This document shows, one piece after another, positions 9,926-28,487 of a stretch of DNA of 64,000 nucleotides (within the stretch, counting starts at the first letter, position 1; each line of letters opens with the position of its first letter). The notes below the pieces were generated by a model that saw only the letters and a program-made list of their open reading frames with translations, was not told the origin of the DNA and made no database searches. Source of the stretch: Promethearchaeota archaeon Loki_b32 (GTDB taxonomy: Archaea > Asgardarchaeota > Lokiarchaeia > Sigyniarchaeales > SOKP01); NCBI GenBank assembly GCA_005223125.1, contig NJBH01000004.1:1-64000 (forward strand), in the 5' to 3' direction. Both the position numbers and the translations under genes were made by a program.

Positions 9926-10321
9926 TTAATGAGCGTGAGCATGTTCTGAGTTACTAGCACAGCTAGCATTGTTTAAAGATGTTAATTGGCCGTCTAATAA
10001 CATTCTTACATTTTTTTCAATGCTTCCATTGATACCTTGAAATAAATTTATGTTAACTTGTTGAAAACCCATAAATGGACGCATACCAATACCAGTTAAA
10101 ATCATATCACTAACATTTCTTTGTTTCATGTTTAGAACAGGTTCCATACAACCTGAATGACCACTATTAGGTAATGCAAAAACTTGCTTGAATTTATTAC
10201 CATCATAAATTTCAATTCCAATGAAATAGTTACAATGTCCAAAATGAGGTGATATATTATCAGATATTTCAGGTCCATCAGAGGGAATTCCAATTATTCG
10301 ATTCATATGTCTTACACTCAT
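9926..10321 (-). CDS. NifB/NifX family protein
   Basis: IGIPS…HFGHCNYF…GIGMRP; HAHAH tail. Confidence 0.88.
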   Translation of the reverse strand: MSVRHMNRIIGIPSDGPEISDNISPHFGHCNYFIGIEIYDGNKFKQVFALPNSGHSGCMEPVLNMKQRNVSDMILTGIGMRPFMGFQQVNINLFQGINGSIEKNVRMLLDGQLTSLNNASCASNSEHAHAH

Positions 10322-10377
10322 TCTTTTTTAAAATTTATGTATTATTGTTTAAAATTAATTCTTATATTTATATTTTG

Positions 10378-10391
10378 TGAATAATCATTCA
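10378..10391. promoter_or_regulatory. Operator copy TGAATAATCATTCA
   Basis: One mismatch to the palindrome; upstream of nifX-osmC genes. Confidence 0.6.
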
Positions 10392-10642
10392 GAATCACTA
10401 CAAAATAGAGATGTGAAAAAATTGAAAAGTTATAAAGAAATAATAAAAGATGATACTTTTAATACGACAGATGAATATTTTGTAGATAATCATATCTCGC
10501 ACTTGTTATTATATAAAGACCTTATGGCATAAATCATCTTTTCATATTGAATTTACTTATTTATTTAGAAATTCTATTAATTATAGCCTCTTTTTATTTT
10601 TTCTTTTCAAAAATATATTATTAAAATTTTCAAATTATAAAG

Positions 10643-11947
10643 TTAATGAGTTGCACAGGATATACAAGGGTCAAATGCCCTAATAATCATCTGAATTTTC
10701 TTTTTAACTAAATTTATATCTCCTGTTCTTTCAAATAATTCTTGAGCATATTTTGTAATCATATCGTTAATAAGTGAGAGATTAAACTCAGTAGCAATGA
10801 ATAGATTTATTCGATCAACGTAATTACTTTTATTAAGGTGATAATGATGTATTAAAACCCCTCTAGGGGCCTCAATAACACCTATTCCATCCAAGTTTTT
10901 TATTGAATTCAGAGAGGGAAGTTTTTCTCTTATATTTAAAGATGGATTATCTAAAATTTGTAATCCTTGATAAGATTCAATATACATTTCTAATAATCTT
11001 ATAAAATTAGTAAATAATATATTGTTTTTCCATGATTTATTAAAGTAGTCAAGATAAGTGGGAATTTCATCAATTCCATAATTCTCAACAATATTAAAGC
11101 GTGAAAAAGGGCCAACAATCACATTTTTTTCATTTTCGAAATAAAAATCAATTCCACGTAAATTAATCTCTTTTCCAAAATATGTAGAATAATTTTGTTT
11201 TTCAAATTCTATAAAGTTTTTATTGTTTTCTTTAAATCTTAAAGAACCAGAATATCGATCATAATTTCCATAATTAGTTAGAGCAAGAGAAATAAATTTT
11301 GGAAGATCAAATTCTTTTGGAGGAGTCTGATTTGCAAATAATTGAATAAATTTTTCTATAATCCATTCTAAAATAACTAAAGCTTTTTGAAAATATTTTC
11401 GAGCTAATGTAATACTTTTTCGAGAAGGAGAATAAATAACACCTCCAGGAACAAGTGAAATCAAATGAACAGATCTACCACCAAATAATTCATTTATTTC
11501 ATTTCCAACTTTAATTAAATCATATAAACTAGTTGTTAATTGAGGATAATATTTGATTAATTCATAAGGAGAAAAAGTCTTTTGGCTAAGATTAAAAATT
11601 GTTAAAAGATCTGGTAGAGTCTGGAAAAAAAAATTCATAGAATGAGATTTAATTAATTCAGCACTCATTAAAAGGCGTCTTAAAAGAATATTATGTTCTG
11701 AAACTTCGATATTATAAATATCTTCTATTGTTTTACAACTAGCGATTGTTTGAGAAGCATAACATAATCCGCATATTCGAGATATAATTTTTGGAATATC
11801 AAATAGATTTTTACCGATTAAGAAATTTTCAAATCCTCGATATATCTCAAATTCTAAATTTACTGATAAAACTTCATCATTCTGAAGTAAGATTCTTACT
11901 TCTCCGTGACCCTCAACACGTTTACAAACATCAACAACTTTTAACAA
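10643..11947 (-). CDS. mvhA: [NiFe]-hydrogenase large subunit, group 3 (MvhA-like), with no C-terminal extension
   Basis: RVEGHG, RICGLCYASQ (L1), EAPRG, DPCISCATH immediately followed by TAA. Confidence 0.9.
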   Translation of the reverse strand: MLKVVDVCKRVEGHGEVRILLQNDEVLSVNLEFEIYRGFENFLIGKNLFDIPKIISRICGLCYASQTIASCKTIEDIYNIEVSEHNILLRRLLMSAELIKSHSMNFFFQTLPDLLTIFNLSQKTFSPYELIKYYPQLTTSLYDLIKVGNEINELFGGRSVHLISLVPGGVIYSPSRKSITLARKYFQKALVILEWIIEKFIQLFANQTPPKEFDLPKFISLALTNYGNYDRYSGSLRFKENNKNFIEFEKQNYSTYFGKEINLRGIDFYFENEKNVIVGPFSRFNIVENYGIDEIPTYLDYFNKSWKNNILFTNFIRLLEMYIESYQGLQILDNPSLNIREKLPSLNSIKNLDGIGVIEAPRGVLIHHYHLNKSNYVDRINLFIATEFNLSLINDMITKYAQELFERTGDINLVKKKIQMIIRAFDPCISCATH

Positions 11948-11952
11948 TCTTT

Positions 11953-12711
11953 TTACCTTTTCATTTTTGGTTTTGAGAATCGATAAAAAATACCAGTATA
12001 ATCCTTTAATTCTTGAGATAATTCTATCAAGCTCAAAAAATTTATAACATTAGAAGTAAAATCTTTTGATACAGGACCCATACATCCCTCACAAGGAAGC
12101 CCCATTTTTATACATTTATGTTCACATCCATCACGAGTTATTGGTCCTAAACATAAAATACCTTTTTTTAAAAAACATTCAGAATTTTCTTCGTTTAGAC
12201 TAATTTCTTCTGGATTAGGATTGATTTTGGTGATATTTATTTGAAAATTAATTTCCATTTTTTCCCATATTGGACAATTGGCGCACATATTTTTTTCGGA
12301 TAAGGTTATATCTTTATTCTCAACCAACCTAATTACACTGTTTCCAAAAAGCTTAGAGGGCGGGGGACAGCCAGGAATAATACCATCAACTTCAATATAA
12401 TTAGAGAGTGGTTCTGCTATTTTTGAATTTGAAAGGCTAAGAATTCCTCCAAAACAAGCGCAGGTTCCTAAAGCAAATACTTTTTTTGCGTGTCTTCGAA
12501 CTTTTCTAAGGAGTATTATTTGTGTTTCTTCAGAAACACAGCCTTCTACTAATGCTATTTCACATTCTTTAATATCTTTTGCATCTGAAATAAATGGAAA
12601 ATAAATTATTCTTGTTCTTTCAAGAAATTGTGGAAAAATGTCTAAAGACATAAGAGTTGATATACACCCAGTACATGAAGTTAGAGAAATTAATATAAAT
12701 CTAGGCTTCAA
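11953..12711 (-). CDS. mvhG: [NiFe]-hydrogenase small subunit (MvhG-like); probable TTG start at 12711
   Basis: SCTGC, GTCACFGG, PGCPP, CLGPITRDGC…CEGCMGP; GGAGG RBS before TTG. Confidence 0.88.
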   Translation of the reverse strand: MKPRFILISLTSCTGCISTLMSLDIFPQFLERTRIIYFPFISDAKDIKECEIALVEGCVSEETQIILLRKVRRHAKKVFALGTCACFGGILSLSNSKIAEPLSNYIEVDGIIPGCPPPSKLFGNSVIRLVENKDITLSEKNMCANCPIWEKMEINFQINITKINPNPEEISLNEENSECFLKKGILCLGPITRDGCEHKCIKMGLPCEGCMGPVSKDFTSNVINFLSLIELSQELKDYTGIFYRFSKPKMKR

Positions 12712-15250
12712 ATTTAATTTCCTCCAATAGTTGATTATAGAATTTATTAGAAATTTCAGCAAATTTATTACCCTCAACAGCATTCAAATGTTCAAGAATT
12801 ATTCGATCTTTATATTTAGGTGATATAATATTCTTTAATAATCTGATTTTATTTTCTACTTTTTTAATTCCATCAATATATCGACAAGCATCTTGTCTAC
12901 AACCAATTATCATTACTCCGTCGAAACCGAGTTCAAATGATTTAATAATAAAGCTAGTGTCAATGCGCCCTGTACAAGGCACCCTGACAATAAAAATATT
13001 TGGATTATAAGAGATCTTCTTGAGTCCGGCATTATCAGCGGCAGCATATCCACAAGAGGCACAGCAGAAGGCAATAATTTTTGGATGTGTTCTGAATTTC
13101 GAAAAAATTTCAATTGTTGCTAGAATCTTTTCAGAAGTGTCTATGTTTAAATCTATTGCATTAGTAGGACAAACACTAGCACAAGTACCGCAACCCTTAC
13201 ATTTGAATTTATCTATACTAACTTTATCTGATTCTATTATAATAGCATTATAAGGACAAATCTTTAAGCACAGACCACATAAGCCACATCTGTTTTCATC
13301 AATCTCTATTCCTGTAAACTCTGCTATCAAATAATTCTTAGAAAGTAATGCAATGATTTTTAATGCAATATTATTAGTTGTTGATATTGTAGAATTATAA
13401 TCTAATGGGCCAAAGATTGTCCCAACTCCATAAATTCCAGAAGCTAATGTTTCTTCACTCATAAATCCATTGTCATCTAATGTAAAATCCATAAATTTTC
13501 GAAGATTTTTTAGATCTTTATTTGGGACATATTTTAGACTTAATACAATCAAATCACTTGGAAATTCAATATTATCAGCAATAATATAATTTTGATCTTT
13601 ATTAGATTCAATAGTAATTTTGTTGGCATATATAAATCTGGGATTAGTTGATCTTAACAAAATCTCATCCTTATCCTTTAATCTACTTAAATCATAAAAA
13701 ACATTGACTTCACAATCAAGATTTCTTATTTTAATATCCTCAATATATTTTTCTGCCAAATTTTCAGAGTAATCAGCAAGATATTTCGATGGGCCAACTT
13801 CTTGGATAATGGAAATCGTATTTATGGGTATTTTATCTGATAATCTTAAAAGCTTTCCTTCAGTTAAACCGTCAGAAGATAAAATCCGCTCAAATTCAGG
13901 TGAAGTTATTATATTTTTTTTGGGATTATAATGATAATCCTCTAAATCTCCGGAAAAATCGGATCCAATAGCAATAACTTTAGTACCAACCTTAATCTCA
14001 ATCCTTTCTTCTTTTTGAGTTAAATCTATTGCTTTATTCACGCACGCACGTTCACAAATTCTACAATTAAGGCAATTCTTTAAATCTTCTTCATCAATTA
14101 AAGGAATATAAGGATAGGAATGCATAAATGGAATATATATGATTTTTCGATTAATTAGACCAAATTCATATTGATTTGGTTTTTCTATACTACAAACTTC
14201 TATACATTGTTTACATCCTGTACATTTTTTCATATCGACATAACGAGGTTTTTTAACCATATTAATTGTAAAATTTCCTACTTCTCCTGATACATTTTCA
14301 ACTTCAGTATTAGTAAAAAAACTTATATTTTTTTCATTCGCTAACTCACTTATTAATTCTGAAATGAAACATATTGAACAATCACCCATATTATGGATTC
14401 TATGCCATCTGGCTACCTTACCTCCCAATGTTGGTGATTTATCAATGAGATATACTTTTATTCCAGCTCGCGCTAAATTTAAAGCAAGGGTTATACCTGC
14501 AATTCCCCCACCTAAAATTGCACAACTCTTTTCTACCTCAACTCTCTTCACTTTTACTTTTTTTTGAAGATTTACTCGTTCAACAGCGGCTTCAATTAAT
14601 AATTTAGTCTTTTCTAATGAAAGTGAAGGATCTATTTGATTCATTTTAAATTGATGTACCCAGCAACATTGTTCTCTAATGTTAGCTATTTCTATATTTG
14701 TACGATCTATAATATCCTCAAAAATTCGTTCAAAAAGAAGTTGGTGTGTTTTTGGAGAACAAGCTGCTATTACTATTTTATTCAAAAAATTGTCTTTAAC
14801 CCAATTACATATTTTTTCAAAATTCTTTTGTTGACAGAGATTTTCAAAAATCTTTACCGAAACTACTTTTCTTAACTTATTCATATAATTTCCAAGTGCA
14901 GTTATATCAATTACACTTGAAATTTCTGTATTACAATTACAAATAATTACTCCAATCCGGCTTATTTCACTTCCCTTATAGTCTAAATACTCATCAATAT
15001 CTTCTCCCGATAAAATTCTTTTGTTAAGATTAAGTATTTTAAGTACGCGTTTGCCTTCTTCTGTAAGAAAATACGATTTTTTGTCTTTCCTTATTAATGA
15101 GTCGATCTTTTTAAGATGAAAATTTAGTTGTCCAGTTGTTTCTAGACCAAGTTTTTCCATTAAATCAGTATAATGAAGATAACCCTCTCTTTCTAAAAGA
15201 AGTAAAATTTTTCTCCTAAATGGATGAGACAATATTGAATATATGTCCAT
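12701..15250 (-). CDS. Fusion protein: ArsR-like winged HTH + HdrA-like flavo-Fe-S + MvhD domain
   Basis: LSHPFRRKILLLL…TGQLNFHLKK…YFLTEEG wHTH; CNC/AACSP/NIREQC HdrA N-domain; GGGIAG; ferredoxin motifs; C-terminal AFCCASCGYAAAD…RVPCTGRID MvhD. Confidence 0.88.
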   Translation of the reverse strand: MDIYSILSHPFRRKILLLLEREGYLHYTDLMEKLGLETTGQLNFHLKKIDSLIRKDKKSYFLTEEGKRVLKILNLNKRILSGEDIDEYLDYKGSEISRIGVIICNCNTEISSVIDITALGNYMNKLRKVVSVKIFENLCQQKNFEKICNWVKDNFLNKIVIAACSPKTHQLLFERIFEDIIDRTNIEIANIREQCCWVHQFKMNQIDPSLSLEKTKLLIEAAVERVNLQKKVKVKRVEVEKSCAILGGGIAGITLALNLARAGIKVYLIDKSPTLGGKVARWHRIHNMGDCSICFISELISELANEKNISFFTNTEVENVSGEVGNFTINMVKKPRYVDMKKCTGCKQCIEVCSIEKPNQYEFGLINRKIIYIPFMHSYPYIPLIDEEDLKNCLNCRICERACVNKAIDLTQKEERIEIKVGTKVIAIGSDFSGDLEDYHYNPKKNIITSPEFERILSSDGLTEGKLLRLSDKIPINTISIIQEVGPSKYLADYSENLAEKYIEDIKIRNLDCEVNVFYDLSRLKDKDEILLRSTNPRFIYANKITIESNKDQNYIIADNIEFPSDLIVLSLKYVPNKDLKNLRKFMDFTLDDNGFMSEETLASGIYGVGTIFGPLDYNSTISTTNNIALKIIALLSKNYLIAEFTGIEIDENRCGLCGLCLKICPYNAIIIESDKVSIDKFKCKGCGTCASVCPTNAIDLNIDTSEKILATIEIFSKFRTHPKIIAFCCASCGYAAADNAGLKKISYNPNIFIVRVPCTGRIDTSFIIKSFELGFDGVMIIGCRQDACRYIDGIKKVENKIRLLKNIISPKYKDRIILEHLNAVEGNKFAEISNKFYNQLLEEIKFEA

Positions 15251-15312
15251 TATTTAAATCCCTCCTTTTTTTTCCTAATTTCAAACAAAATTTTTTAAAA
15301 CTAAAACAAAAA

Positions 15313-16458
15313 TTATTCTTCATTTACTACTGAAGTCATTGATGACGATTTCCATACTATCAATTTATTCTTCATATTTTTTTCTGTTCGTTTTATTTTT
15401 GATTGAGAGAATTGGGTAATTTTTTCCATCATTTCCTTTTTGTCATTTACATCCAATTTTAAACATTTAATTACACCTGCGTTTAGTGCTTTATTGACTA
15501 TATCTTTTCCTTTTTTTGTACGAGTGATAACAGTTGTAAATTTATCAGGGGAGCCTAACCCTCCAAAGGAAATATCTGCATAAATATTAGTAAAATCTTT
15601 GCAAACCGCGCAAGCTTGACGCACATAATCATTTAATCTCTTAAAAGGTATATGAATAGTACTATTATCTTTTAAATTAACAATTAAATCTTCCTTAATG
15701 TTTATTCTTTTAATATTTTTGAATTTTAGTTTAAAATCTTTTTCAAATTTCTCAACCTTTTTATTATCAAAAAAAAAATTCTCATAACAAAATAATCCTA
15801 AACAAAATTCTATATTCTCAGATGGAATGATACCTAAGTTTTGCATACATCTAATTGTGTAAATTTGACAAGGTGTTCCTATTAATGCCAATTTCTTAAA
15901 TTTGTACTGCTTTAATTTGGGTAATGAACTTGTATATGTATGAAATTTCTGTACAGTTTCTAATTGGGGAGATGTATCTAACTTGACACCTGAAGCGCTA
16001 ATTAAATCTTCTCTACTTTTAGCTATTATACCCTCTCTAGAGAAAGGTGATTTTGTTTTTGCAACAATTGCTCCATCAATCACTTTTTTATCTATTAAAT
16101 AATTAATTATTGAGTTTACAACCCCGCCGTCTGTACCAAAATTTAAGAATTCACTATCTATAGCTTGGCAAGAGTAAATTGCTTCTACAAACCCTAAAGG
16201 CATCGATAAAAAATCTGAAAAAGTATAAGATTTATTGAGATCCTCGTCTAAAACATGTGTTTGTGGACAAATGAAATAACAAATCCCACACTCAAGGCAT
16301 TTTTCCTTATTTAAATATTCTGGAGGAGAATTAGGTTTTTTAAATCCAATTACATCATTTTCTATTGAATTACAAAAACTTACACAACCACCACACTCTT
16401 GACAAATACCAGGTTCATGGACTTCTTCAATTAAATCCTTAAAAGTTTTTATACTCAT
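15313..16458 (-). CDS. FrhB/FdhB-family F420-binding flavoprotein with N-terminal 2x[4Fe-4S]
   Basis: CQECGGC, CLECGIC, DGGVV, GTPCQI, GLFCYENF, CAVCKDF…ADISFG. Confidence 0.88.
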   Translation of the reverse strand: MSIKTFKDLIEEVHEPGICQECGGCVSFCNSIENDVIGFKKPNSPPEYLNKEKCLECGICYFICPQTHVLDEDLNKSYTFSDFLSMPLGFVEAIYSCQAIDSEFLNFGTDGGVVNSIINYLIDKKVIDGAIVAKTKSPFSREGIIAKSREDLISASGVKLDTSPQLETVQKFHTYTSSLPKLKQYKFKKLALIGTPCQIYTIRCMQNLGIIPSENIEFCLGLFCYENFFFDNKKVEKFEKDFKLKFKNIKRINIKEDLIVNLKDNSTIHIPFKRLNDYVRQACAVCKDFTNIYADISFGGLGSPDKFTTVITRTKKGKDIVNKALNAGVIKCLKLDVNDKKEMMEKITQFSQSKIKRTEKNMKNKLIVWKSSSMTSVVNEE

Positions 16459-16532
16459 GCTTAAAAATCACCAATTTATATTTACAATCTTAAAAGTTAT
16501 TATGACTATTTTGACAATATTTATGATCTCTA

Positions 16533-16550
16533 TGATAAATATAATTGTCA
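16533..16550. promoter_or_regulatory. Operator TGATAA-N6-TTGTCA
   Basis: Imperfect palindrome; same motif at 16702, 25886 and 25993. Confidence 0.6.
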
Positions 16551-16701
16551 AAATATATAAATATGATCCTTTTTGTATATTATGTGACTATAAGTAATAA
16601 TAAGAAATGATGGATAATTGCATCAAGTATTAGATAAATGATAGATATTATATTGGAGAATGATCATGGAAAGATCAGACTCGCTCATTAAATAAACAAA
16701 A

Positions 16702-16783
16702 TGATAAAAAATTTTGTCAAAATAACTATAATTTATCTTATCAGATTTTTTAAATTTCTCTTAGCTTATTATTTAATCGGAAA
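16702..16783 (+). promoter_or_regulatory. Operator TGATAA-N6-TTGTCA + TATA (TTTAAATT, 16749) promoter of Sec-hdrA
   Basis: Aligns without gaps to 25993-26073. Confidence 0.65.
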
Positions 16784-16898
16784 AGTTCATTACAGAGTAA
16801 TATTAATTACATTTTTGTAAATTTTACACTTTTTTCCAAAAAAAAAATAAATTTTTTCTTTTAAGAATAAATTGGTGATGTTTAACTAGGTGGATTAA

Positions 16899-18935
16899 AT
16901 GTCTGAAAATCAGACCAATGTTAGGATTGGAGTATATATCTGTAGATGAGGAATTAATATTAGTGCTAGCATCGATTGTGATCTTATTAGAGATTATGTT
17001 GAGGCACTCCAAGATATTATTGTTGCTAGAGTAAATGATTTTACTTGTAGTGATCCGGGACAAAATATCATCAAAAACGATATTTTAGATTTAGATTTAA
17101 ATCGTGTAGTTGTTGCAGCTTGTACACCAAAAATTCATGAATCCACATACCGAACAGTTTTAACTGAAGCAGGATTAAACCCATATTACTTTCAGATGGT
17201 TAATCTTCGCGAGCATTGCTCATTCATTCACTCGGGTGATAAGAGAAGTACTACTGAAAAAGCTATAAGGTTAGTGCAAGCAGGGATAAATCGTGCGAGA
17301 CAATTAGAAATTATACCTCATAAAAAAATTTCAGTGGAAAAATCTGTATTAATTATTGGTGCTGGAATTGCAGGGATGAATGCTGCATTAGATTTAGCAA
17401 ATCAAGGAATAATTGTATATTTGGTCGAAATAGAAGCCACAATTGGTGGAAAAATGGCACAATTAGATCGAATTTATCCTACAGACGATTGTGCTATATG
17501 AGTTCTAGCACCTATTATGGTTAGTGCTTCAAAACACCCAAATATAACATTATTTACTTATAGTGATATTATTGGATTTAGTGGTATCCCTGGTAATTAT
17601 AATGTTAAAATATGTAAAAATCCCCGGTATATTGATGAAAAAAAGTGTACTGGTTGTGGATTATGTACGACAAAATGTCCAATAACAGTACCTAACGAAT
17701 TCAACAGATGTATTGGCGAACGGAACGCAATTTATATACCCTTTTCCCAAGCGGTACCTAAAATTGCGTTAATTGAAAAGAGTATCTGCATAGAATGTAA
17801 AAATTGTCAAAAAATTTGTCCAGCAGAGGCTATTGACTTTGAACAAGTCTCAGAATATGTTGATTTAAAAGTTGGTGCAGTAATTATCGCTACAGGATGG
17901 GATGAATATCCAATTATGAAAAATAACGAATATAAATATGGTATTTATCCTGATGTTATTACTCAAATAGAGTTAGAACGTATATTGAGTCCAGTTGGGC
18001 CAACAGGGGGTCACTTATATAGAATTTCTGATGGAAAACCCCCAAAAACATTAGCTATGATTCAATGTGTTGGTTCAAGATCCTTAAAAGGTAATCCCTA
18101 TTGCTCTGGAGTATGTTGTAATGTTGCACTTAAAAACGCTCAGTTGTTAAAACAAGAATATCCTGACATGGACATTGCTATTTTTTATATAGATATGCGA
18201 ACGTGGGATAAAGGAAATGAAGAATATTATAGAAAAGCGAGAGAAGCGGGTATAATGATGATTCGGGGAAAAGTTGGAGATATCCGAGTAGATCCTGATA
18301 CACTAAAAATAAAAGTTACAGCTGATTCAACTTTAACAAATGATTTCATAACAATGAATACCGATTTAGTTGTATTATCAACAGGCATGGTTCCTTCTAA
18401 AAATACAGCACAAATTGTTGAGACTTTAGGTTTAAGTAAAGATATAAATGGGTTTTTAACTGAAGTTCATGGGTGTCTAAAACCTCAAGAGACAAATAAT
18501 TTTGGCATATATATATGTGGCTGTGCTGCTGGACCTAAAAATATTCCTTATTCAGTATCGACAGCTTTAGCTGCAGCAAGTAAAGTATCTACTTTACTTT
18601 CTAAAGATACAATTACTCAAGAATTAATCATTGCTGAAGTAAATGAAACTCTATGTATTGGTTGCCATAGATGTGAAAAACTCTGCAATTATAAGGCAAT
18701 AAAAGTTAATGGAGAGAATATAGCTGAAGTAGACGACTTAAAATGTAAAGGTTGCGGAGTTTGTGTATCATCATGCCCCGCTCGAGCAATTGATCTTAAA
18801 TATTATAGAGATAAACAAATTATTGAAGAGATAAAAGGGATTTGTAGTACTGAACTTGAATATAAGGAAGAATATATTGAATCTATTGAACTTATTTGGA
18901 AAAAGATTGAAGCATTAGCTCCTCATCAAACATAA
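16899..18935 (+). CDS. hdrA: Heterodisulfide reductase subunit A, 678 aa, with two in-frame UGA (probable selenocysteines U17, U201)
   Basis: AGGTGG RBS, ATG 16899; one frame through TGA 16947 (IGVYICR-U-GINI, paralogues CHCG/CQCG) and TGA 17499 (PTDDCAI-U-VLAP, paralogues PTLDCSLCILAP); joins ORFs 17196 and 17517. Confidence 0.85.
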
Positions 18936-19007
18936 TCTGAAAAAGAATGATCCTCTTAAAAAAATGTTAGTTGAGAGGAAACTAACCCATTGCAAGGGTT
19001 TTCAGAA
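18936..19007 (+). promoter_or_regulatory. Structured 3' UTR, candidate SECIS-like element
   Basis: Outer helix TCTGAAAA/TTTTCAGA; ATGA followed by TCCTCTTAA/TTGAGAGGA helix with A-rich loop; 3' core non-canonical. Confidence 0.4.
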
Positions 19008-19022
19008 AAATGTAAAGTAATA

Positions 19023-19044
19023 GATGATATAAATTTATATCATC
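19023..19044. terminator. Perfect 22-bp palindrome between convergent genes
   Basis: GATGATATAAATTTATATCATC. Confidence 0.4.
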
Positions 19045-19154
19045 AATTCAAATTAATTTAATTTATACGAATGGATATCTATCTTTCTTTATTTTCTTTT
19101 TTTTAAGTTAATAATGTGTAAAATGGCTTATCTAAGAATTGTTAATTAATTATT

Positions 19155-20264
19155 TTATTTCTTGTTTTTTAAAGAAATTAATTTATTATACCAATCGAAT
19201 TTCTTATTCTTCCACTCAATAGTGTGTGGACCAATAAATTGCTCAATTATGCCTTTTGAAAGCATATTATTTATTACTTTTTCACCATTATCAGTTCTAA
19301 TTAGTATCATCGAATATCCTTCTGGAGCTCCAGATGCTCCAACACTAATATCTGTAAATCTTCCTGTGAATTCATCACATTCATGGCAACTATTTCTAAC
19401 TGCGGGATCTAGAGTTTTGATATCGATTTCAAATTCTTTATTATCTTTGGTTTGGATAAAGAAATTCTTTTTTATCCATGTTTTCTTGATTTTAGTAGGA
19501 TCAACTTTGGTTTCTCTCTTTAAAATATCATACAATTGATTATAAATAAAATTCTCAAAACAAAAAAGACCTATAATGTATTTAATGACATGAGCTGGTT
19601 TAACATGCAAAAATTTCATTTTACTGACAGCCTTACATTGGCAAGGAGTTCCAATAAATGCCATTCTTAGCTGGTCAATATCAAATATCTCCTTTTTCAT
19701 AAGAATCTTTTGCGATATGTTGTATAAATTTTTTAAAGGGAATATTTGAGAAGAAATAGAATAGCGTGTACCTGCTGATTTAAATAAATTTTCTTTATCA
19801 AATATAATTTTTGGAACAGGTTCAAAATTATCGTCAAATTCTGAAACAATAGCTGCATCAATTTTATGTTTTTCAAATAAATATGTTAGAATTGCTGAAA
19901 CTACCCCTCCATCTTGTCCAACTTTTTCTAATGCCGCGTTTGTTGTTTTAGCAGCAAGAATTTTAACGATATGTCCAATATTATCTTCAATATAATAAGT
20001 ATCCTTTAATTCTTTTAATAATGCTTTAGTTTGAGGACAAATGTAATAACAAACACCACATTTAGTACAATTATCAACACTTTTTTCTGATTTAAAGCCA
20101 GGATTATATCCATTCATCTCAATAACATTAAAACCTTGACATTCGCAATATGCTATGCAAGCTCCACAAGCACAGCATTTATTACTTTTAATTATTTCAT
20201 TTTCAAGGTCTTCAAATGTTTTTACTTCATTTTGCAAAAGTTTCTGAGAATCTGATTCAGTCAT
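19155..20264 (-). CDS. FrhB/FdhB-family F420-binding protein with 2x[4Fe-4S]
   Basis: CCACGAC, CTKCGVC, GQDGGVV, GTPCQ, GLFCFENF, CHECDEF. Confidence 0.88.
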   Translation of the reverse strand: MTESDSQKLLQNEVKTFEDLENEIIKSNKCCACGACIAYCECQGFNVIEMNGYNPGFKSEKSVDNCTKCGVCYYICPQTKALLKELKDTYYIEDNIGHIVKILAAKTTNAALEKVGQDGGVVSAILTYLFEKHKIDAAIVSEFDDNFEPVPKIIFDKENLFKSAGTRYSISSQIFPLKNLYNISQKILMKKEIFDIDQLRMAFIGTPCQCKAVSKMKFLHVKPAHVIKYIIGLFCFENFIYNQLYDILKRETKVDPTKIKKTWIKKNFFIQTKDNKEFEIDIKTLDPAVRNSCHECDEFTGRFTDISVGASGAPEGYSMILIRTDNGEKVINNMLSKGIIEQFIGPHTIEWKNKKFDWYNKLISLKNKK

Positions 20265-20279
20265 TATAATTCTCTCTTT

Positions 20280-20756
20280 TTATTTCTTTGTACAATTATA
20301 TTCTAATTCAAATATTCCTGATTTTTTAGGGATTTTTAATTCTCCAAATTCTATAATTTTCTTTGTAAAATCTTTAATTAACTCTGAAAATTGTTTTCCC
20401 TCACTTGCAGAAATTGAGTGTAATTGAAATCGATCTGCTTCAATTCCAATATATCTTATTAAATTCTTTAAATGAACCATTCTTACTTGAGTATATTCGA
20501 ATCCTTTCATATAATGACAATCACCCATATGGCATCCAATAATTAGCACTCCATCTATTCCATTATTAAAAGCTCGTAGAACAAATGTTGGATCAACCCT
20601 GCTAGAACACATTACCCTAATAATCCTAATATTCGGGGGATATTGGAATCTAGAAACACCTGCTAAGTCTGCACCCGCATAACTACACCAATTACAGCAA
20701 AAAACTAAAATATTTGGTTCAAATTCACTTTTTACCTTTTTTTTAATTTTTAACAG
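20280..20756 (-). CDS. mvhD: MvhD/FlpD [2Fe-2S] subunit (start uncertain; CTG at 20756 follows GGGGGG RBS)
   Basis: [19 protein letters not shown]…RVMCSSRVD…GCHMGDCHY. Confidence 0.9.
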   Translation of the reverse strand: MLKIKKKVKSEFEPNILVFCCNWCSYAGADLAGVSRFQYPPNIRIIRVMCSSRVDPTFVLRAFNNGIDGVLIIGCHMGDCHYMKGFEYTQVRMVHLKNLIRYIGIEADRFQLHSISASEGKQFSELIKDFTKKIIEFGELKIPKKSGIFELEYNCTKK

Positions 20757-20772
20757 TATTAATCCCCCCAAA

Positions 20773-23700
20773 TTAAACAATTTCATAATCCATTGCATCT
20801 AAGCTTGGTAATAAATCAATCATTTTGTTAATTTGAAATTTACTAAAATGATTTTGATCAATAGCCCCAACTGAGCATTCAACAATGCAAGCTCCACAAC
20901 CTTTACAAACAGCATTAATTACACGAGCCTTTCTCACGGATATATTATATAAACCCATTTCTTTATAAATTTCAACCAATTCAATAGCGTTATAAGGGCA
21001 AATCTCAATACATTTACCGCATCCTATACATTTTTCTTCATTTATATAAGAAGTTATACATTCAGTTTCTATTTCCCCTTTAGCCATTATTATTGCCGCT
21101 CTTCCAGCAGCACCATAAGCTTGAGTGATAGTTTCACCTATCCATTTCGGCCAATGAGCTCCTCCACATAGGAAAATTCCTTCTGTTGCAAAGTCTATTG
21201 GCCTAAGTTTTGCATCAGCTTCTAAGAAAAAGCCATTTGTATTTGTTGATACTTTTAACAATTTTGCTAATTGTTCAGTATCATCAACAGGAACTTTAGG
21301 AGTAGCTAATATTAATAAATCAGTATTATATTCAATATTTATTTGAGCCCCAACATTATAATATACGATATGGAAATTATCATTTTCATCACAGATTTTG
21401 ATATCATCAATTGAACGATATCTTTCATATGTAACTTTTTTTCGAAGCCTTCGCCATAGATTTTCAGCATTTAAATCTGAGAATTGAAACTCTCTATATA
21501 AAATATGAATATGTGCATTATGGTTTATATTTAATAATTTTTCAATATTCTTTAATGCTACACCACAACAGATATTTGAGCAATAAGTTTTTATATTATC
21601 TCCCGTATTAAATTCGTTTCTTCTTTGATCTACGCATAGTATTATTGTAGCATCTTTAAATTCAGGAACATCTGCATCTTTCATCTCAGTTAATTCTGTT
21701 TGTGTGAGTAGACGTTTAGGATATCTTTCCGATAAATTTACCCACCTGCTTGTTTTTATTTGCTTAGTTCCCGTAGCCACTATTATTGTACCCACATTGA
21801 ATGTTTTATTTTTTGAATTATCATGAATATTCTTAACTTTAACTTGGTAATTTCCAACATAACCTTGAATATCATCTATAACTGAATTTAATAAAATATG
21901 AACATTGGATTTGTTTTTCAAATCTTTAATTTCCTTTAAAATTTCATTTTTCGTAATAGGTATATAATATAAATCAATAAATTCAAGTGCGACACCTCCA
22001 AGAAAAGATTTCTTATCTACAAGATAAATCTCAAATCCTTGATTTGCCAAATTATATGCAGCAGTTATCCCTGCTATTCCACCACCAATTATTAGAGTTG
22101 ACTTCTCAACTTTTACTTTAATGGTTTCTAATGGTTTTAAATTAATTACCTTTGCTAAATACATCCTTATTAAATCACATGCTTTTTTAGTAGCCTTTTT
22201 AGGTTCATTTTGATGAACCCAAGAATCTTGGTTTCTTATGTTTACTAGTTCAAATAAAAATGGATTTAATCCAGCTTCTCTTAGAGTATTTTTAAAAAGC
22301 TGTTCATGAGTTCGCGGGGTACAAGAAGCAACTATAAATCTATTAAGATTGTATTTTATGATTAGTTCTTTAATCCGTTCTTGGGAATCAGAACTACATG
22401 AATACATGTTTTCTTCAACATGGACAACATATGGCAATTTAGAAACATAATCTACTACTTCGGAAACATTAACAATACCTCCGATATTAATACCACACTG
22501 ACAAATTAAAATACCTACACGAGGTTCATCCTCCAGTTTTACTGGTATTTCTGGAGGATATTTCAATTTTTTTATATTTTGAAATCTAACATGATATAAT
22601 ATTTCGCTAATTTTAGCAGCACATGCAGAACCTTCAGCAACTGCCATTTGAATATCATTGGGTTTTCTAGAATAACCAGTTACGAATATATTCTTTTTTT
22701 CAAGTAAAATTATATCTGTTTCATGAATATAACCTAAATTGTTACAACCCACGTTAAGTTTTCTTAAAAGCTCATGATAAGAGGGAGGTGGAGATAATGC
22801 ACTAGCTAATATAGCCATATCCGCTTCAAAAGTTCCAACTTTTCCTTTATCAATATCTTCATAATATAATTTTAATTTTCCGTTATCTAAATTTTCTTTG
22901 ATATATGAAACATGACCATTCACATATTTAACATTATATTCATTCTTACTTTTTTCAATAAATTCATAAAAGTTCTTACCTTTAGCTCTGACTTCTGTAT
23001 TAAAAATATAACAGTCAATGCTTGGATCATGTTCTTTAACAACAATTGCTTCTTTAGCTGAATTCATACAACATATGGCAGAACAATATTTTTTACATTC
23101 AGGATGATGAACGTCTCGAGACCCAACACATTGTATAAAAGCAATTGAATGAGGATGTTTTTTATCATCTAATCTTATGATTTGACCACCAGTAGGTCCA
23201 TTTGCAGATAAAAGACGTTCAAATTGCATACTAGAAAAAACATTCGGGGAAGAGCCAGCAAAAGAATCATATACGTCTGGCATTTCTTGGATATATCCTG
23301 TAGCAATAACAATAGCCCCTACTTTTAAATCTATTTCTTCTGGTTTTTGTAAAAAATCTATTGCTTCTGGTTTACAAGCTTTAGCACAAAGTCCACATAT
23401 TCTATAATTTAAATATAAACATTTTGATTCTTCAATGAGATATATTGGGGGTACTGATGATGGAAAAGGCATATATATGGCGCCTCGAGTTTTTAAATGA
23501 GTATCAAATTCGCTAGGAATTCCTCTAACTGGACAAATCTCGCCACAATCTCCACATCCTTTACAGAGGTCTTCTTTTATATATCTTGGCTTTCTTATAA
23601 TTGTTATTGTGTAATCACCAGCAGATCCTCTAATATTTTTAACATTAGAATAAGTAAATAACTCAATATTTGGATTTCTATATATATCAACCATTTTTGG

Positions 23701-23886
23701 AGCTAAGATACATAAACTACAATCAAGGGTGGGATATATTTTGTCTAATTGAGCCATAGCACCCCCAATAGTCGGTTTAATTTCGACTAAATATACTTTA
23801 AAACCTAACTTAGTTAGGTCTAAGGATGCCTGTATCCCTGAGATTCCTCCTCCAATAACCAAAACACTACTCTGCAAATTTGGCAT
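20773..23886 (-). CDS. hdrA: Large HdrA-like protein with two FAD domains (1037 aa)
   Basis: GGGISG; PTLDCSLCILAP; IQCVGSR…YCSAICC; internal CQCG/ASCTP N-type domain; second GGGIAG; C-terminal ferredoxin. Confidence 0.9.
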   Translation of the reverse strand: MPNLQSSVLVIGGGISGIQASLDLTKLGFKVYLVEIKPTIGGAMAQLDKIYPTLDCSLCILAPKMVDIYRNPNIELFTYSNVKNIRGSAGDYTITIIRKPRYIKEDLCKGCGDCGEICPVRGIPSEFDTHLKTRGAIYMPFPSSVPPIYLIEESKCLYLNYRICGLCAKACKPEAIDFLQKPEEIDLKVGAIVIATGYIQEMPDVYDSFAGSSPNVFSSMQFERLLSANGPTGGQIIRLDDKKHPHSIAFIQCVGSRDVHHPECKKYCSAICCMNSAKEAIVVKEHDPSIDCYIFNTEVRAKGKNFYEFIEKSKNEYNVKYVNGHVSYIKENLDNGKLKLYYEDIDKGKVGTFEADMAILASALSPPPSYHELLRKLNVGCNNLGYIHETDIILLEKKNIFVTGYSRKPNDIQMAVAEGSACAAKISEILYHVRFQNIKKLKYPPEIPVKLEDEPRVGILICQCGINIGGIVNVSEVVDYVSKLPYVVHVEENMYSCSSDSQERIKELIIKYNLNRFIVASCTPRTHEQLFKNTLREAGLNPFLFELVNIRNQDSWVHQNEPKKATKKACDLIRMYLAKVINLKPLETIKVKVEKSTLIIGGGIAGITAAYNLANQGFEIYLVDKKSFLGGVALEFIDLYYIPITKNEILKEIKDLKNKSNVHILLNSVIDDIQGYVGNYQVKVKNIHDNSKNKTFNVGTIIVATGTKQIKTSRWVNLSERYPKRLLTQTELTEMKDADVPEFKDATIILCVDQRRNEFNTGDNIKTYCSNICCGVALKNIEKLLNINHNAHIHILYREFQFSDLNAENLWRRLRKKVTYERYRSIDDIKICDENDNFHIVYYNVGAQINIEYNTDLLILATPKVPVDDTEQLAKLLKVSTNTNGFFLEADAKLRPIDFATEGIFLCGGAHWPKWIGETITQAYGAAGRAAIIMAKGEIETECITSYINEEKCIGCGKCIEICPYNAIELVEIYKEMGLYNISVRKARVINAVCKGCGACIVECSVGAIDQNHFSKFQINKMIDLLPSLDAMDYEIV

Positions 23887-23943
23887 TTATCACAGCTATT
23901 GAAAACATTTATTAACTTTATATCCCAATTTTGTAAGATTAAT

Positions 23944-25200
23944 TTAAACAAGCATTAGCAATTTTCCAATAAAACTTGCTAAATCTACGACCTTTATTTT
24001 ATTTCTCAATTCATTATGCTCTTTATTTAAAGAAGGCTCATTTATATAACAATTGAAGTGTGTTAGACATTTAGGGCAAGTAACAATTAAATAATCTGCT
24101 CCAGTATTAACTGCTTCATTAATACGATTTTGCCTTAAAAAATGTGTGAATTCATTACAATTTGTAAATGTCGAAACACCACAACAATTAGCGTCATCTT
24201 TTATGTTTTCCATTTCAATCAATTCTACTCCTGGAATTTGTTTAATTAATTCTCTTGGAGAATTATATAGTTTTCCCCCTAAACGCCCCATTCGACAAGA
24301 ATCGTGATATGTTACCTTAATTTTAGAATTGTAAGGAAATTTAACATGTTCAAGTATTTTTTCCTTTAGAAAAAATTCAGAAAAATGAAAAACTTTAAAA
24401 TCAAAATCATCTACTATTTTTGGATAATCATATTTCCATGTTCGATATCCTTCAGCACATCCAACTATAACAGTTTTTACCCCTGCATCTTTGTAAAGCT
24501 GAGTATTATATTCAGCAAATTTTTTAAAAGTTTCAATATTGCCCTTACCCCATAAAATATCGTGTCCACAGCATTTTTCATTTAAAACTACGGGTACTAT
24601 ATTGGCTTCATTAAGTAAACTTATTATTGTAATAGGTATATTGTTATAATTAAAACCTAAATTATAAAAAATTTCTTCCATTAAAGGTAAACATCCAATA
24701 AAGTAAGCAATTTCACCCGATTCTGCTGTTTTTAAGGCTTTTTCATCTAAAAATTCTAATTTATTTGGAATTATAGCTTCATTTGCCATCATTTTTGAAA
24801 TTAGTGGAAAGATTTCATTATGTGTTTCACATCGAGTAATTCTATCAATTTGTATTTCATTATTTCTTGAAATTTTTCTTAATTCCAAAATTAATTCGGG
24901 GATTCTTATACCATCATTTTCTTGAGTCATTGGACAATATATTGTACATTGACCACATGTAAGACAATTCCATATATTATGATTAGTTAAAACTTCTCCA
25001 AAAGAAGAATATATTAAATCCCCTACTAACATTCGAGGAAAAAATATATCTAAATGCGAAAGTGGACATACATTTACACATCGATTGCAAGCAAAACAAT
25101 AGTTTGCCATCGAAATTATATTTTTAATATTTTGCTCTAAGATTTTGAAGCTAGAATTACCACCTTTAATTTCATTATTGATATAAGAAGCCATAAACAA
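23944..25200 (-). CDS. HdrD-like (HdrC+CCG domains) Fe-S protein
   Basis: CFACNRC, CLTCGQC, EKCCG, YHDSCRMGR, CCG, TCPKC. Confidence 0.88.
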   Translation of the reverse strand: MFMASYINNEIKGGNSSFKILEQNIKNIISMANYCFACNRCVNVCPLSHLDIFFPRMLVGDLIYSSFGEVLTNHNIWNCLTCGQCTIYCPMTQENDGIRIPELILELRKISRNNEIQIDRITRCETHNEIFPLISKMMANEAIIPNKLEFLDEKALKTAESGEIAYFIGCLPLMEEIFYNLGFNYNNIPITIISLLNEANIVPVVLNEKCCGHDILWGKGNIETFKKFAEYNTQLYKDAGVKTVIVGCAEGYRTWKYDYPKIVDDFDFKVFHFSEFFLKEKILEHVKFPYNSKIKVTYHDSCRMGRLGGKLYNSPRELIKQIPGVELIEMENIKDDANCCGVSTFTNCNEFTHFLRQNRINEAVNTGADYLIVTCPKCLTHFNCYINEPSLNKEHNELRNKIKVVDLASFIGKLLMLV

Positions 25201-25410
25201 TTACTCCTCGAAATAAATCTCAGAATATCCACATTTAGAACATACATATGTTTTAACATTAGGTGCTTTACGTCTGTAAACATAGTCAGTATTTTTTAAA
25301 GGTGCCTTGCACTTATTACATATTTCTTTATACTCTTCCTTTTCTATTAACGTGTATTTATCACCCCTTTTTTTGATATAAAACATGTTATTTTTAGGAA
25401 TTATATACAT
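25201..25410 (-). CDS. Small Zn-ribbon protein (start uncertain)
   Basis: CNKC…YVCSKCGYSE; abuts hdrD-like gene. Confidence 0.6.
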   Translation of the reverse strand: MYIIPKNNMFYIKKRGDKYTLIEKEEYKEICNKCKAPLKNTDYVYRRKAPNVKTYVCSKCGYSEIYFEE

Positions 25411-25885
25411 ATTTTTAACAATATTGTGAATTTTAGAAAAATATTTTTTTAAAAAGATCCATCTCTATTATAGAAGAGGTATTCTACATTTAAAAATCCT
25501 TACTTTTAATTGAGTTTCTCCTTAATGATACTATCCAGAAATGCAATCTATATTATGAATAATCGAGAATTCTTATCTAAACAGTAAGAGAGTAGGATAG
25601 TTTTGATGAAAGAATTGATCGAAATCAGCAATATTATTTTCGATTAATAGATATTATTTAACGATATTTTTAAAATGCATAAAATATTTATTAGATTTTT
25701 AATGATTTGATAAATAATACCTAACAAATTTATCAAAATTCTTCCTTTAGTAAGGCTTAATATATTAGGGCTATTAACCTCTATCAGCAAAAAATAACAT
25801 TAAAATGAGATTATTTATGAAAACTCTGCTGATTAAACATAGAGGTAACTAAAATTTTTAATTTAAATTCTTTTGTTATGTAATT

Positions 25886-25903
25886 TGACAAAAATAATTT
25901 TCA
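25886..25903. promoter_or_regulatory. Operator TGACAA-N6-TTTTCA
   Basis: Matches motif at 16533/16702. Confidence 0.5.
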
Positions 25904-25992
25904 AAATATATTTTTTAAAATGTTATGATTGTAAAAATGAGGTTAAACCTTCAGTTATCTAAATGAAAAGAAAAATTGTTAAAGAGATTTTT

Positions 25993-26073
25993 TGAAAGCT
26001 TAATTTGTCAAAATGATAAATATTTTTCTTATCAAACAATTTAAATTTTAATCATATTATAATATAATTGGAA
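25993..26073 (+). promoter_or_regulatory. Operator TGAAAG-N6-TTGTCA + TATA (26040) promoter of mtd operon
   Basis: Same spacing and conserved blocks as 16702-16783. Confidence 0.62.
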
Positions 26074-26151
26074 TTATTCTCATGCTCAAAAAGGTGGAAA
26101 GGGTTCACCTTAAGATGTTACGATAATTCCATGGATATATTTTAATAAAAT

Positions 26152-26802
26152 ATGAAAAGTGATGTATTTAAGATGGAAGTATTAGAATTAAAACCAATAA
26201 GAAACAAAACAGTAGTTATATATTTAATAGATAAAACTAGGATAAACTCTCAACTCAATGATATTGATATTTTAAAGGCGTTAGTAGATAAAAATAATAT
26301 AAATTTTATTACTATTGATATAAATAACGGTAATTTCAAAACTTTCAAAAACTCAAATCTTTCAAGGGTTCTAAATGCCTTAAACGTAGAATATTATTTA
26401 CTAGATATGCCTAAGTACGCATATGGGTATCTTTATGAAGAGATAACGAAGAAAGAAGAGCAAATTAATGACCTATTGGAGGAATACCGAATTATGGATG
26501 ATAAGGACTCTTTTAGAGGTTTAAATTTAAAATCTTGGATTGATGTGCTTAAAAAAGAAGTTTTTCAAGAGAAGAATATTTTAGAAATTAAAATAAGACC
26601 ACAATGGATTGTCAAAAAAATTTTAGATTTAATTAAAAAACATAAAAATGAAAAGGTTTCTCTTATTCATTTTACCAATGAAAGTACCCTTCCAGAAATA
26701 ACTAAGCAATTAAGAAATCTTCATATAGAAGCAATTGTTTATAATTTCAATAATATTTATAATATTCCATATTTAATTATAAAACAGGAGGAAAGTAATT
26801 AA
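26152..26802 (+). CDS. Hypothetical protein paralogous to the N-terminal domain of the downstream Mtd fusion
   Basis: Both share MEVLELKP; aligned blocks YYLLDMPKYAYGYL/YKMVDISENAENYL and KIRPQWIVKKIL/NIREAWMMMGIL. Confidence 0.75.
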   Translation: MKSDVFKMEVLELKPIRNKTVVIYLIDKTRINSQLNDIDILKALVDKNNINFITIDINNGNFKTFKNSNLSRVLNALNVEYYLLDMPKYAYGYLYEEITKKEEQINDLLEEYRIMDDKDSFRGLNLKSWIDVLKKEVFQEKNILEIKIRPQWIVKKILDLIKKHKNEKVSLIHFTNESTLPEITKQLRNLHIEAIVYNFNNIYNIPYLIIKQEESN

Positions 26803-28487
26803 TGGAAGTTTTAGAATTAAAACCCTTAAAGAAAAAAAGTTTAAAACTTATATTAATTGAAAGTGAATTTCCCATAAACTGGTGGTTTGAGACATCAGCA
26901 GAGAAAAAGCATGATTTAGTATGGAATTTACATTTAATTTCAAAGGAGTATCTCAATCTAATTGAACATTTGATTAAGAAATATAATCCTGATTTCGCTG
27001 TAGAAGAGAAAGGAAGCCGTTGGGAAGATGCAATAGCTCCTGACGATCCTCTAGAATCATTATTTAGGGAATTTAAAATTCCTTATAAAATGGTAGATAT
27101 TTCAGAAAACGCAGAAAATTATCTTTCCTCAAATTTGGAAGATTATAGAACTCTTATAAAGCAGTTGACAAAATCAATTAAAGATATTTGGGTGAATAAC
27201 GATAAAAAATTTCCAAAAGATGATTTTGAGTTTCAACGTATGTTTTTATGGAGAGAATACCTGCAACAAGAATACAACCTTCAAGAAGATGAAATAAGAC
27301 TTAATATTCGAGAAGCTTGGATGATGATGGGGATTCTAAAATTTGCAAAGATAATGGGAGAAAAAACACTAAAAGCATTTTTTATCTGTAATCCTAACCA
27401 TTTCAAAGGTATCACTCATCTGGCAGGAGATTTAGGCTTTGAAACTGAAGAAATAAAAATTAAACGGTTGGCAAAAGTTGTTAATAACCCTGGTTCTGAT
27501 TCAATTAAAACTATAATTGGAAAAAGCATACTTGAATTATCGCCGATTAAAGTGAAAAAAAAAGAATCATTAGAAAAAATATGTTATTTTTTTGATACTG
27601 ATGCTAATGCTTCTCCTTTCGATATAAATATGGCTTATGACGCAGGTTTTGATGTAGTTATACCTATTAGTAAGATGACTGCTGATCAAGTACCAAAGCT
27701 CGTACAAGATGCAATTTTTTCTCGGAAACCGAAAGCTCCTACAACATTCTTTATTGGTGGATCTAATGTTAAAGAAGGAGAAAAAATTGCTAAAAAAGTT
27801 ATAAAGTCGTTGGTACCCCCATTTGAATGCCCCGTGATTATAGATCCTCGGGGTTCACACACCACAGCTTCTTCTGTAGTTGCTAAAACTGTTGAAGTTG
27901 CTAAAGAACATGAATTATATGATTTAACAGGTAAAAAAGTAGTTATTTTAGGATCAGGTCCAGTTGGGAGAATTGCAGCTATAATCGCAGCAAAATTAAA
28001 TTGTAAAACGTATTTAATTGAAACCTGGGAAAGATCGAGTGAAGAATTTATAAAAAATCTAGCAAAAGAATTAATGGAAGAAGCTGGAGAAAATTCAACT
28101 GAAATTGTTGGTGTTTTTGCACCAGATGATGAAAAGAAATTAGAAATAATAAATAATGCAGATATAATATGGAGTTTGGCTGCCGCTGGTGTACAAATTT
28201 TATCAAAAGAATTAATGGATAAATTAAAAAACAAAATTGTAATAGACATAAATTTGGTTCCTCCTTATGGCATTGAAGGATTAAAGCCAAAAGATAATAA
28301 TAAAGAAATATACCCAACTATATTTGGAATAGGAGCATTAGCTTTAGGACGTTTAAAATCCAATATTGAAGCAAATATCCTTAAAGAAGCATCAACAACT
28401 AAAGGAAAAAAAGTATTTGATTACAATTATGCTTTTGAGCAAGCAAAGAAACTCCTTTTTGGAAATGAAATAAAATTGTCAACCTAA
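26802..28487 (+). CDS. NAD(P)-dependent methylene-H4MPT dehydrogenase (MtdA/MtdB family) with ~250-aa N-terminal extra domain
   Basis: FDTDANASPFDINMAYDAG, DAIFSR, IDPRGSHTTA, GSGPVG, DINLVPPYGIEG, GIGALALG. Confidence 0.85.
   Translation: MEVLELKPLKKKSLKLILIESEFPINWWFETSAEKKHDLVWNLHLISKEYLNLIEHLIKKYNPDFAVEEKGSRWEDAIAPDDPLESLFREFKIPYKMVDISENAENYLSSNLEDYRTLIKQLTKSIKDIWVNNDKKFPKDDFEFQRMFLWREYLQQEYNLQEDEIRLNIREAWMMMGILKFAKIMGEKTLKAFFICNPNHFKGITHLAGDLGFETEEIKIKRLAKVVNNPGSDSIKTIIGKSILELSPIKVKKKESLEKICYFFDTDANASPFDINMAYDAGFDVVIPISKMTADQVPKLVQDAIFSRKPKAPTTFFIGGSNVKEGEKIAKKVIKSLVPPFECPVIIDPRGSHTTASSVVAKTVEVAKEHELYDLTGKKVVILGSGPVGRIAAIIAAKLNCKTYLIETWERSSEEFIKNLAKELMEEAGENSTEIVGVFAPDDEKKLEIINNADIIWSLAAAGVQILSKELMDKLKNKIVIDINLVPPYGIEGLKPKDNNKEIYPTIFGIGALALGRLKSNIEANILKEASTTKGKKVFDYNYAFEQAKKLLFGNEIKLST

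Follow-up and report, generated by a model that had tools for sequence, protein, structure and literature searches.

Structure of the hdrA locus and its product

The window analysed, i.e., the first 64,000 nucleotides of contig NJBH01000004.1 (assembly GCA_005223125.1) of Promethearchaeota archaeon Loki_b32, contains an hdrA gene at positions 16899–18935 of the + strand, which comprises 678 codons and a TAA stop codon (18933–18935) when TGA is read as selenocysteine (Sec, U). A Shine–Dalgarno-like AGGTGGA sequence (16888–16894, +), read directly, lies 4 nt upstream of the ATG codon, and the full-length orthologues all align from residue 1 of this start. The two in-frame TGA codons are codon 17 (16947–16949, +; C15-R-U17-G in the context YICRUGINI), located in the N-terminal cluster-binding domain, and codon 201 (17499–17501, +; C198-A-I-U201 in the context DDCAIUVLAP), which is the canonical HdrA Sec site and occupies the column of Cys197 in M. 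wolfeii and Sec197 in M. maripaludis.

The earlier note on this DNA, made from the sequence alone, had described a single 678-codon frame with a strong ribosome binding site that the list of open reading frames misses, and both points hold: the plain list contains only the fragments 17196–17501 and 17517–18935. Gene callers likewise split the protein into pieces of 101 and 472 aa, which gives reading through UGA its annotation value; where it is omitted, the Hdr inventories in Asgard metabolic reconstructions become wrong. The interpretation of the locus as a split gene was also considered and was rejected.

The placement of both TGA codons on Cys columns of paralogues from the same window, likewise proposed in that note, was confirmed. 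The paralogues carry CHCG (58958–62080, –), CQCG (~20773–23886, –), and CNCN (~12701–15253, –) at site 17, and CSLC, CSLC, and CSIC, respectively, at site 201. The solved HdrA chains agree with this placement. Residues 7–651 of the product matched 9sfi_A with an E value of 4.6e-210 and residues 8–648 matched 5odc_A with an E value of 1.2e-203; the site-17 column is Cys in both chains and corresponds by this alignment to Cys13 in M. wolfeii numbering, and the site-201 column is X (deposited Sec) in 9sfi_A and Cys in 5odc_A. 9sfi_A is the M. maripaludis protein, and Sec-HdrA with Sec at the CxxU site occurs in Methanococcales, as the note had stated.

The fold of the product is already fixed by its sequence identity to solved HdrA. 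Similarity over the full length covered the N-terminal, FAD/TrxR, inserted ferredoxin, and C-terminal ferredoxin domains, and the Pfam matches were to Fer4 families, Pyr_redox_2, and NAD_binding_8. All of the HdrA motifs sought, namely, GxGxxG (FAD), CxGSRx(n)CSxxCC, four CxxCxxCxxxC(P), and CxxC/U near residue 200, were present in the translation, in which the cofactor motifs read IIGAGIAG, CVGSRSLKGNPYCSGVCC, CTGCGLCTTKCP, CIECKNCQKICP, CIGCHRCEKLCN, CKGCGVCVSSCP, and CAIU.

Conservation of the two UGA codons

The search of 40 related genomes revealed orthologues of 82–91% identity, each with at least two in-frame TGA codons, and a scan of the genome collection gave 33 full-length orthologues (80–91% identity), all from MAGs that carry a Promethearchaeota (Loki-type) or another Asgard label. 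Site 201 was TGA in all 33 of them and site 17 in 32, the remaining one having GGA. TGT or TGC was found at neither site among these full-length orthologues, and no further stops or frameshifts accompanied the conserved TGA codons in the 33 species-level orthologues. Where the residue is unchanged, the median identity of the third codon position is only ~73%, and both TGA codons are therefore maintained rather than merely inherited unchanged. The pattern expected of a selenoprotein gene, in-frame UGA on Cys columns of homologues that is conserved as UGA in orthologues, was thus found here.

More distant relatives extended this picture. A sister clade of ~75% identity has TGA at both sites 17 and 201. 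At the same time, in an HdrA clade of ~51% identity (loci L100–L144, from many Promethearchaeota genomes), TGA occurs at sites 17, 50, 75, and 201 in 30 genomes and at sites 17, 75, and 201 in 12 more; judging from these alignments, the N-terminal cluster region together with site 201 can apparently hold up to four Sec residues. Across the whole HdrA alignment, five Sec columns were seen (17, 50, 75, 201, and 407).

Several orthologues deviated individually. The GGA codon at site 17 (L073:146–148, JBHLKA010000071.1; Gly in CRGG) occurs in a gene that keeps TGA at site 201 and the downstream SECIS element; either Sec17 may be dispensable in this case or the MAG consensus may be wrong. Another orthologue (L044, identical to L078; G002:C2:317966–319996) carries additional in-frame TGA codons at positions 260 and 297. 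Within the inserted ferredoxin domain, they replace the last Cys of one CxxCxxCxxxC motif and the Cys that opens the following one, and these two positions would be ligands of one [4Fe-4S] cluster if the domain adopts a two-cluster ferredoxin fold. In two further orthologues, column 407, which belongs to the CSGVCC motif, is TGA.

Selenocysteine machinery encoded in the genome

The presence of the Sec machinery, which the earlier note had named as a necessary check, was established at the genome level: tRNA-Sec, PSTK (as a match below the cut-off), SepSecS, EFSec, and SelD were all found. The genes for SepSecS (C57:27123–28424, 486 bits) and EFSec (C57:33846–34880, 242 bits) scored above their cut-offs; the PSTK-like gene gave 138 bits and an E value of 6e-40 but remained below the curated cut-off. 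Two SelD genes are present, each with one in-frame TGA codon (Sec-SelD).

The tRNA-Sec gene was located by a loose-threshold scan of the contig that carries SepSecS and EFSec (23.9 bits), followed by analysis by hand. It lies on the minus strand at ~28508–28660 of contig C57 in genome G000 (equal to L034:10508–10660), beside SepSecS and ~5 kb from EFSec. The 153-nt precursor combines an acceptor stem of 9 bp (GGCCCUUGA with UCGAGGGCC) with a T stem of 4 bp, i.e., the 9/4 fold; its variable arm is long, its anticodon loop reads CUUCAAA (UCA anticodon), and it ends in G73-CCA. It apparently contains two introns, of ~31 nt in the D loop and of 30 nt in the T loop, and the D-loop insert holds a perfect AAAGAUC/GAUCUUU hairpin. 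For the Loki tRNA-Sec, a T-loop intron only, together with linkage to EFSec, has been described (Mariotti 2016, PMC4989117). ARAGORN called no tRNA-Sec in the whole genome, and it did call tRNA-SeC once both inserts were removed in silico; the intron joints were placed by hand, so this call is supportive rather than independent. The genome-wide matches to RF01852 were considered as candidates and rejected, because all of them were ordinary tRNAs (Gly with an intron, Gly, Arg, and Leu).

SECIS element downstream of hdrA

A lokiSECIS element of the Asgard type I, eSECIS-like, is located at 18947–18981 (+), starting 11 nt past the hdrA TAA codon, with the UGA codons ~1.4 and ~2.0 kb upstream. It has the composition AUGA-UCCUCUUAA-AAAAAUGUUAG-UUGAGAGGA-AA, where the AUGA core (18947–18950, +) is followed by a 9-bp helix (18951–18959 with 18971–18979, +) that closes an 11-nt loop, AAAAAUGUUAG, beginning with AAAAA (18960–18970, +), and by the AA dinucleotide (18980–18981, +). 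The features that define lokiSECIS (AUGA, a 9-bp helix, an 11-nt adenine-led loop, and GA or AA) were all present. The geometry of AUGA, 9 bp, and 11 nt with AAAAA matches that published for lokiSECIS (Mariotti 2016, PMC4989117), and the AUGA_AA core variant was previously noted for Loki hdrA/frhD (2024 ISME J, PMC11227280). The element forms part of a larger three-way structure (18936–19006, +; MFE –19 kcal/mol, z –3.3), with a lower helix (18936–18942 with 19000–19006, +) that starts at the first base past the stop codon and a side hairpin (18985–18999, +). Within the window, neither Rfam at the gathering threshold nor ARAGORN gave a match.

Comparison of 24 sequences demonstrated covariation in the SECIS stem: 97% of the stem cells were paired, both partners had changed in five of the nine pairs, and neither the AUGA nor the adenines of the loop varied. 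In the controls, none of 500 shuffles reached the observed score, and slid registers also fell far short. In 28 orthologues, the lower helix had three pairs with compensatory changes and the side hairpin one pair that had changed on both sides. The element occupies the identical 11-nt offset in 23 of 34 orthologous loci.

In three orthologues (L044/L078, L048/L086, and L087), TAA is replaced by TTA in the region equal to 18933–18950 of the window; their frames are four codons longer and end on the UGA inside the SECIS AUGA, with the SECIS core serving as the stop codon.

Gene neighbourhood and the absence of vhuD

The hdrA gene is the only one on the + strand here and has a minus-strand cluster on either side. 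Upstream, an FrhB/FdhB-like gene (15313–16458, –; Pfam FrhB_FdhB_C and FrhB_FdhB_N) is divergent and not co-transcribed with hdrA, and many orthologous loci likewise have an FrhB-like gene upstream of hdrA in the opposite orientation. Downstream, a second FrhB/FdhB-like gene (19155–20264, –; identified by Pfam) is convergent, with no vhuD between hdrA and position 19155. At least 19 orthologous loci keep this convergent neighbour (69–92% identity), and the arrangement is thus a stable one. The left-hand side also carries an HdrA–MvhD fusion of 849 aa (~12701–15253, –) with an N-terminal DUF7347 and a C-terminal FlpD/MvhD domain, and the right-hand cluster includes a Cys-type MvhD gene (20280–20798, –), a fused HdrA of 1037 aa (~20773–23886, –), and a CCG-domain HdrB/C-like gene (23944–25200, –). 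Neither hdrBC nor mvhD was found among the + strand neighbours that could form a transcription unit with hdrA, and the VhuD profile had no + strand match (no FlpD-like frame) in the region 10000–27000.

A tandem of hdrA and vhuD sharing a SECIS element, which is absent at this locus, was found in the sister clade of 75% identity and in a paralogue on contig C50 (L006). In the sister clade, the same SECIS lies 440–451 nt past the hdrA stop codon, behind a vhuD gene with two Sec sites (C-D-K-U-G and I-S-U). From this comparison, it is most likely that the window clade lost vhuD from an ancestral hdrA–vhuD pair and kept the SECIS, and the formerly shared element would now lie directly 3′ of hdrA.

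Many HdrA paralogues are present in the genome. Two of those in the window (~20773–23886 and 58958–62080, both –) are fusions of more than 1000 residues with a permuted domain order, the CSLC/FAD part coming first (~44–78) and the N-terminal-type CxCG domain following (~456–494); they resemble the fused “self-heterodimer” HdrA of ANME and Moorella (PMC9012536).

Decoding of the UGA codons and proposed function

A functional Lokiarchaeia hdrA gene, in which both UGA codons are read as Sec, very probably accounts for these data; the double selenoprotein proposed in the earlier note is supported by the conserved TGA codons, the Sec machinery, and the covarying SECIS. Three other explanations were weighed. 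According to the first, the UGA codons are recoded, though not both as Sec, with near-cognate or Cys insertion at one of them or with UGA17 acting as a Se-dependent attenuator. The position of UGA17, which is preceded by only 16 codons and is separated from the SECIS by ~2.0 kb, could be cited in its favour, as could the Gly tolerated at site 17 in one orthologue and the Sec/Cys isoform switching under Se limitation known in Methanococcus (PMC13518236). However, three HdrA clades share UGA at site 17, which is also Sec in published Jordarchaeia sequences (PMC11227280), no orthologue replaces it with a Cys codon, and one lokiSECIS was argued to serve up to six UGA codons over ~2 kb (Mariotti 2016, PMC4989117), which makes this explanation improbable.

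Inactivation of one hdrA paralogue by two nonsense mutations appears more doubtful still. One copy among many HdrA paralogues could decay, and the gene callers do fragment the frame, but the chance that two random stops would both fall on Cys columns is ~0.0025 (34 of the 678 residues are Cys or Sec), which bears out the argument of the earlier note that two independent nonsense mutations landing on Cys sites would be unlikely. Moreover, the TGA codons are kept in 32/33 and 33/33 orthologues despite ~27% third-position divergence, with no other stops or frameshifts, and a covarying SECIS lies downstream, so a pseudogene is hardly credible. An altered code with TGA as a sense codon genome-wide, which the several genes with in-frame TGA in this genome might suggest, can be practically dismissed, since TGA closes 236 of the 1628 frames of at least 300 codons, similar to TAG (229), and otherwise serves this genome as a normal stop codon, while the in-frame TGA codons occur only on Cys columns of known selenoprotein families, each with a SECIS.

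Under the favoured explanation, with Sec at both sites, tRNA-Sec would be charged via PSTK and SepSecS with selenophosphate supplied by SelD and would be delivered by EFSec, and the loki-type SECIS 11 nt past the stop codon would act on both UGA codons upstream. The product would be an HdrA subunit for flavin-based electron bifurcation that has the full set of six [4Fe-4S] motifs as well as the FAD site. Sec201 would be the CxxU residue beside FAD that contacts the mobile N-terminal “shuttle” cluster (HA3/A3) of the partner protomer, and Sec17 would belong to the CxC motif of the N-terminal shuttle-cluster domain; the two Se atoms of the dimer would meet at the HA3/FAD′ interface, either as cluster ligands or as a Se–Se or Se–Fe relay.

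Structural work on related proteins provides the background to this proposal. Cys197 of M. wolfeii, the counterpart of U201, is described as providing the fourth ligand to the N-terminal [4Fe-4S] cluster of the other protomer (PMC9012536). The M. maripaludis protein shows density between its N-terminal A3 cluster and FAD, which a Cys and Sec197 hold in place and for which a selenylsulfide relay was considered possible (PMC13518236). The same Cys pair in M. marburgensis has an unknown ligand bound to it and, together with MvhD Cys16, sits between the MvhD cluster and FAD (PMC13580544). Because Cys197 has been described as a ligand and site 17 belongs to a CxC motif, the location of both Se atoms at or near the N-terminal [4Fe-4S] cluster, as had been suggested from the sequence, is plausible. 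A literature search for ligands of the N-terminal (HA3) cluster yielded nothing useful on site 17.

Comparison with known systems

The closest known systems are the multi-Sec HdrA proteins of Lokiarchaeota (PMC4989117) and the Asgard HdrA selenoproteins of the 2024 catalogue (PMC11227280), which belong to the same family and share the two Sec positions and the SECIS type with the window gene. Loki HdrA was reported to contain up to four Sec residues at five possible positions, all on conserved Cys columns and always including the site near residue 200 (Mariotti 2016, PMC4989117); from the columns found here and the PMC11227280 supplement, we infer that these five positions are 17, 50, 75, 201, and 407, which fits. 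The supplement to the 2024 Asgard selenoproteome (PMC11227280) contains orthologues with X (= Sec) at both sites, including Lokiarchaeia_GCA_013375485_U_3 (~91% identical), which starts with MSEIQTNVRIGVYICRXGVNIS, has DDCAIXVLAP, and ends with ALAPHQT, and YICRXG occurs 28 times among its sequences. As these orthologues are already marked at both sites, the double-Sec HdrA is a correct rediscovery of a known protein. The N-terminal Sec site, described as less familiar in the earlier note, shows no sign of novelty, being present in the PMC11227280 supplement and apparently also among the positions of PMC4989117. As a discovery, the finding is therefore minor, since earlier publications already cover this kind of gene, its two Sec positions, and its class of SECIS.

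The gene arrangement is the one point that deviates from the published accounts. In the published arrangement, hdrA always adjoins vhuD/frhD and the SECIS lies behind the second gene (PMC4989117, PMC11227280), whereas the window clade lacks vhuD, and its SECIS is located directly 3′ of hdrA in the window gene and its orthologues. This clade, which is part of the data set of both papers, is an exception to the “always tandem” rule. New here are a lineage of hdrA genes that lack vhuD and have a three-way SECIS of their own, the probable clustering of the N-terminal Sec sites 17, 50, and 75, together with 201, round one mobile [4Fe-4S] cluster, and the apparent match between Sec sites 17 and 75 of HdrA and the two Sec sites of VhuD.

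In the comparison with VhuD/MvhD (FlpD family), U17 falls on the first Sec site of VhuD (C-D-K-U-G) and Cys75 on the second one (I-S-U), and column 75 is Sec in the HdrA clade of 51% identity. The similarity of the HdrA N-terminal domain to VhuD by hhalign is weak (E 0.021, probability 2%), and the VhuD profile gave no match to the HdrA N-terminus at E ≤ 10. MvhD binds a [2Fe-2S] cluster and the HdrA N-terminal domain a [4Fe-4S] cluster. A two-part proposal can be made only tentatively, its parts being rather unlikely to hold jointly: first, that a widespread and stable HdrA lineage exists without vhuD and with its own SECIS, so that Sec decoding in Asgard archaea does not require the coupling of hdrA to vhuD, and second, that Sec17 is the counterpart of the first Sec of VhuD (MvhD Cys16) and forms with Sec201 of the partner a Se–Se or Se–Fe switch at HA3. 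If this were true, the Sec17/Sec201′ switch would be the elusive electron relay between FAD and the clusters more than 20 Å away in bifurcating Hdr. The new points listed above bear on a question posed by the 2026 cryo-EM papers, namely, the role of the conserved CxxC/U pair between FAD and the distant clusters.

The HdrA of M. maripaludis serves methanogenesis, which, to our knowledge, Lokiarchaeia do not perform. The Methanococcales Sec-HdrA, represented by the M. maripaludis Hdr-Vhu-Fwd complex (9sfi, PMC13518236), has the same four-domain organization with full-length alignment to the window protein and has Sec at the CxxU site beside FAD. However, this is its only Sec, the site-17 column being occupied by Cys, whereas two Sec residues are present in the window HdrA; its gene uses an archaeal-type SECIS in an hdrA–vhuD context, in contrast to the eukaryote-like SECIS of the window gene, which is found without vhuD.
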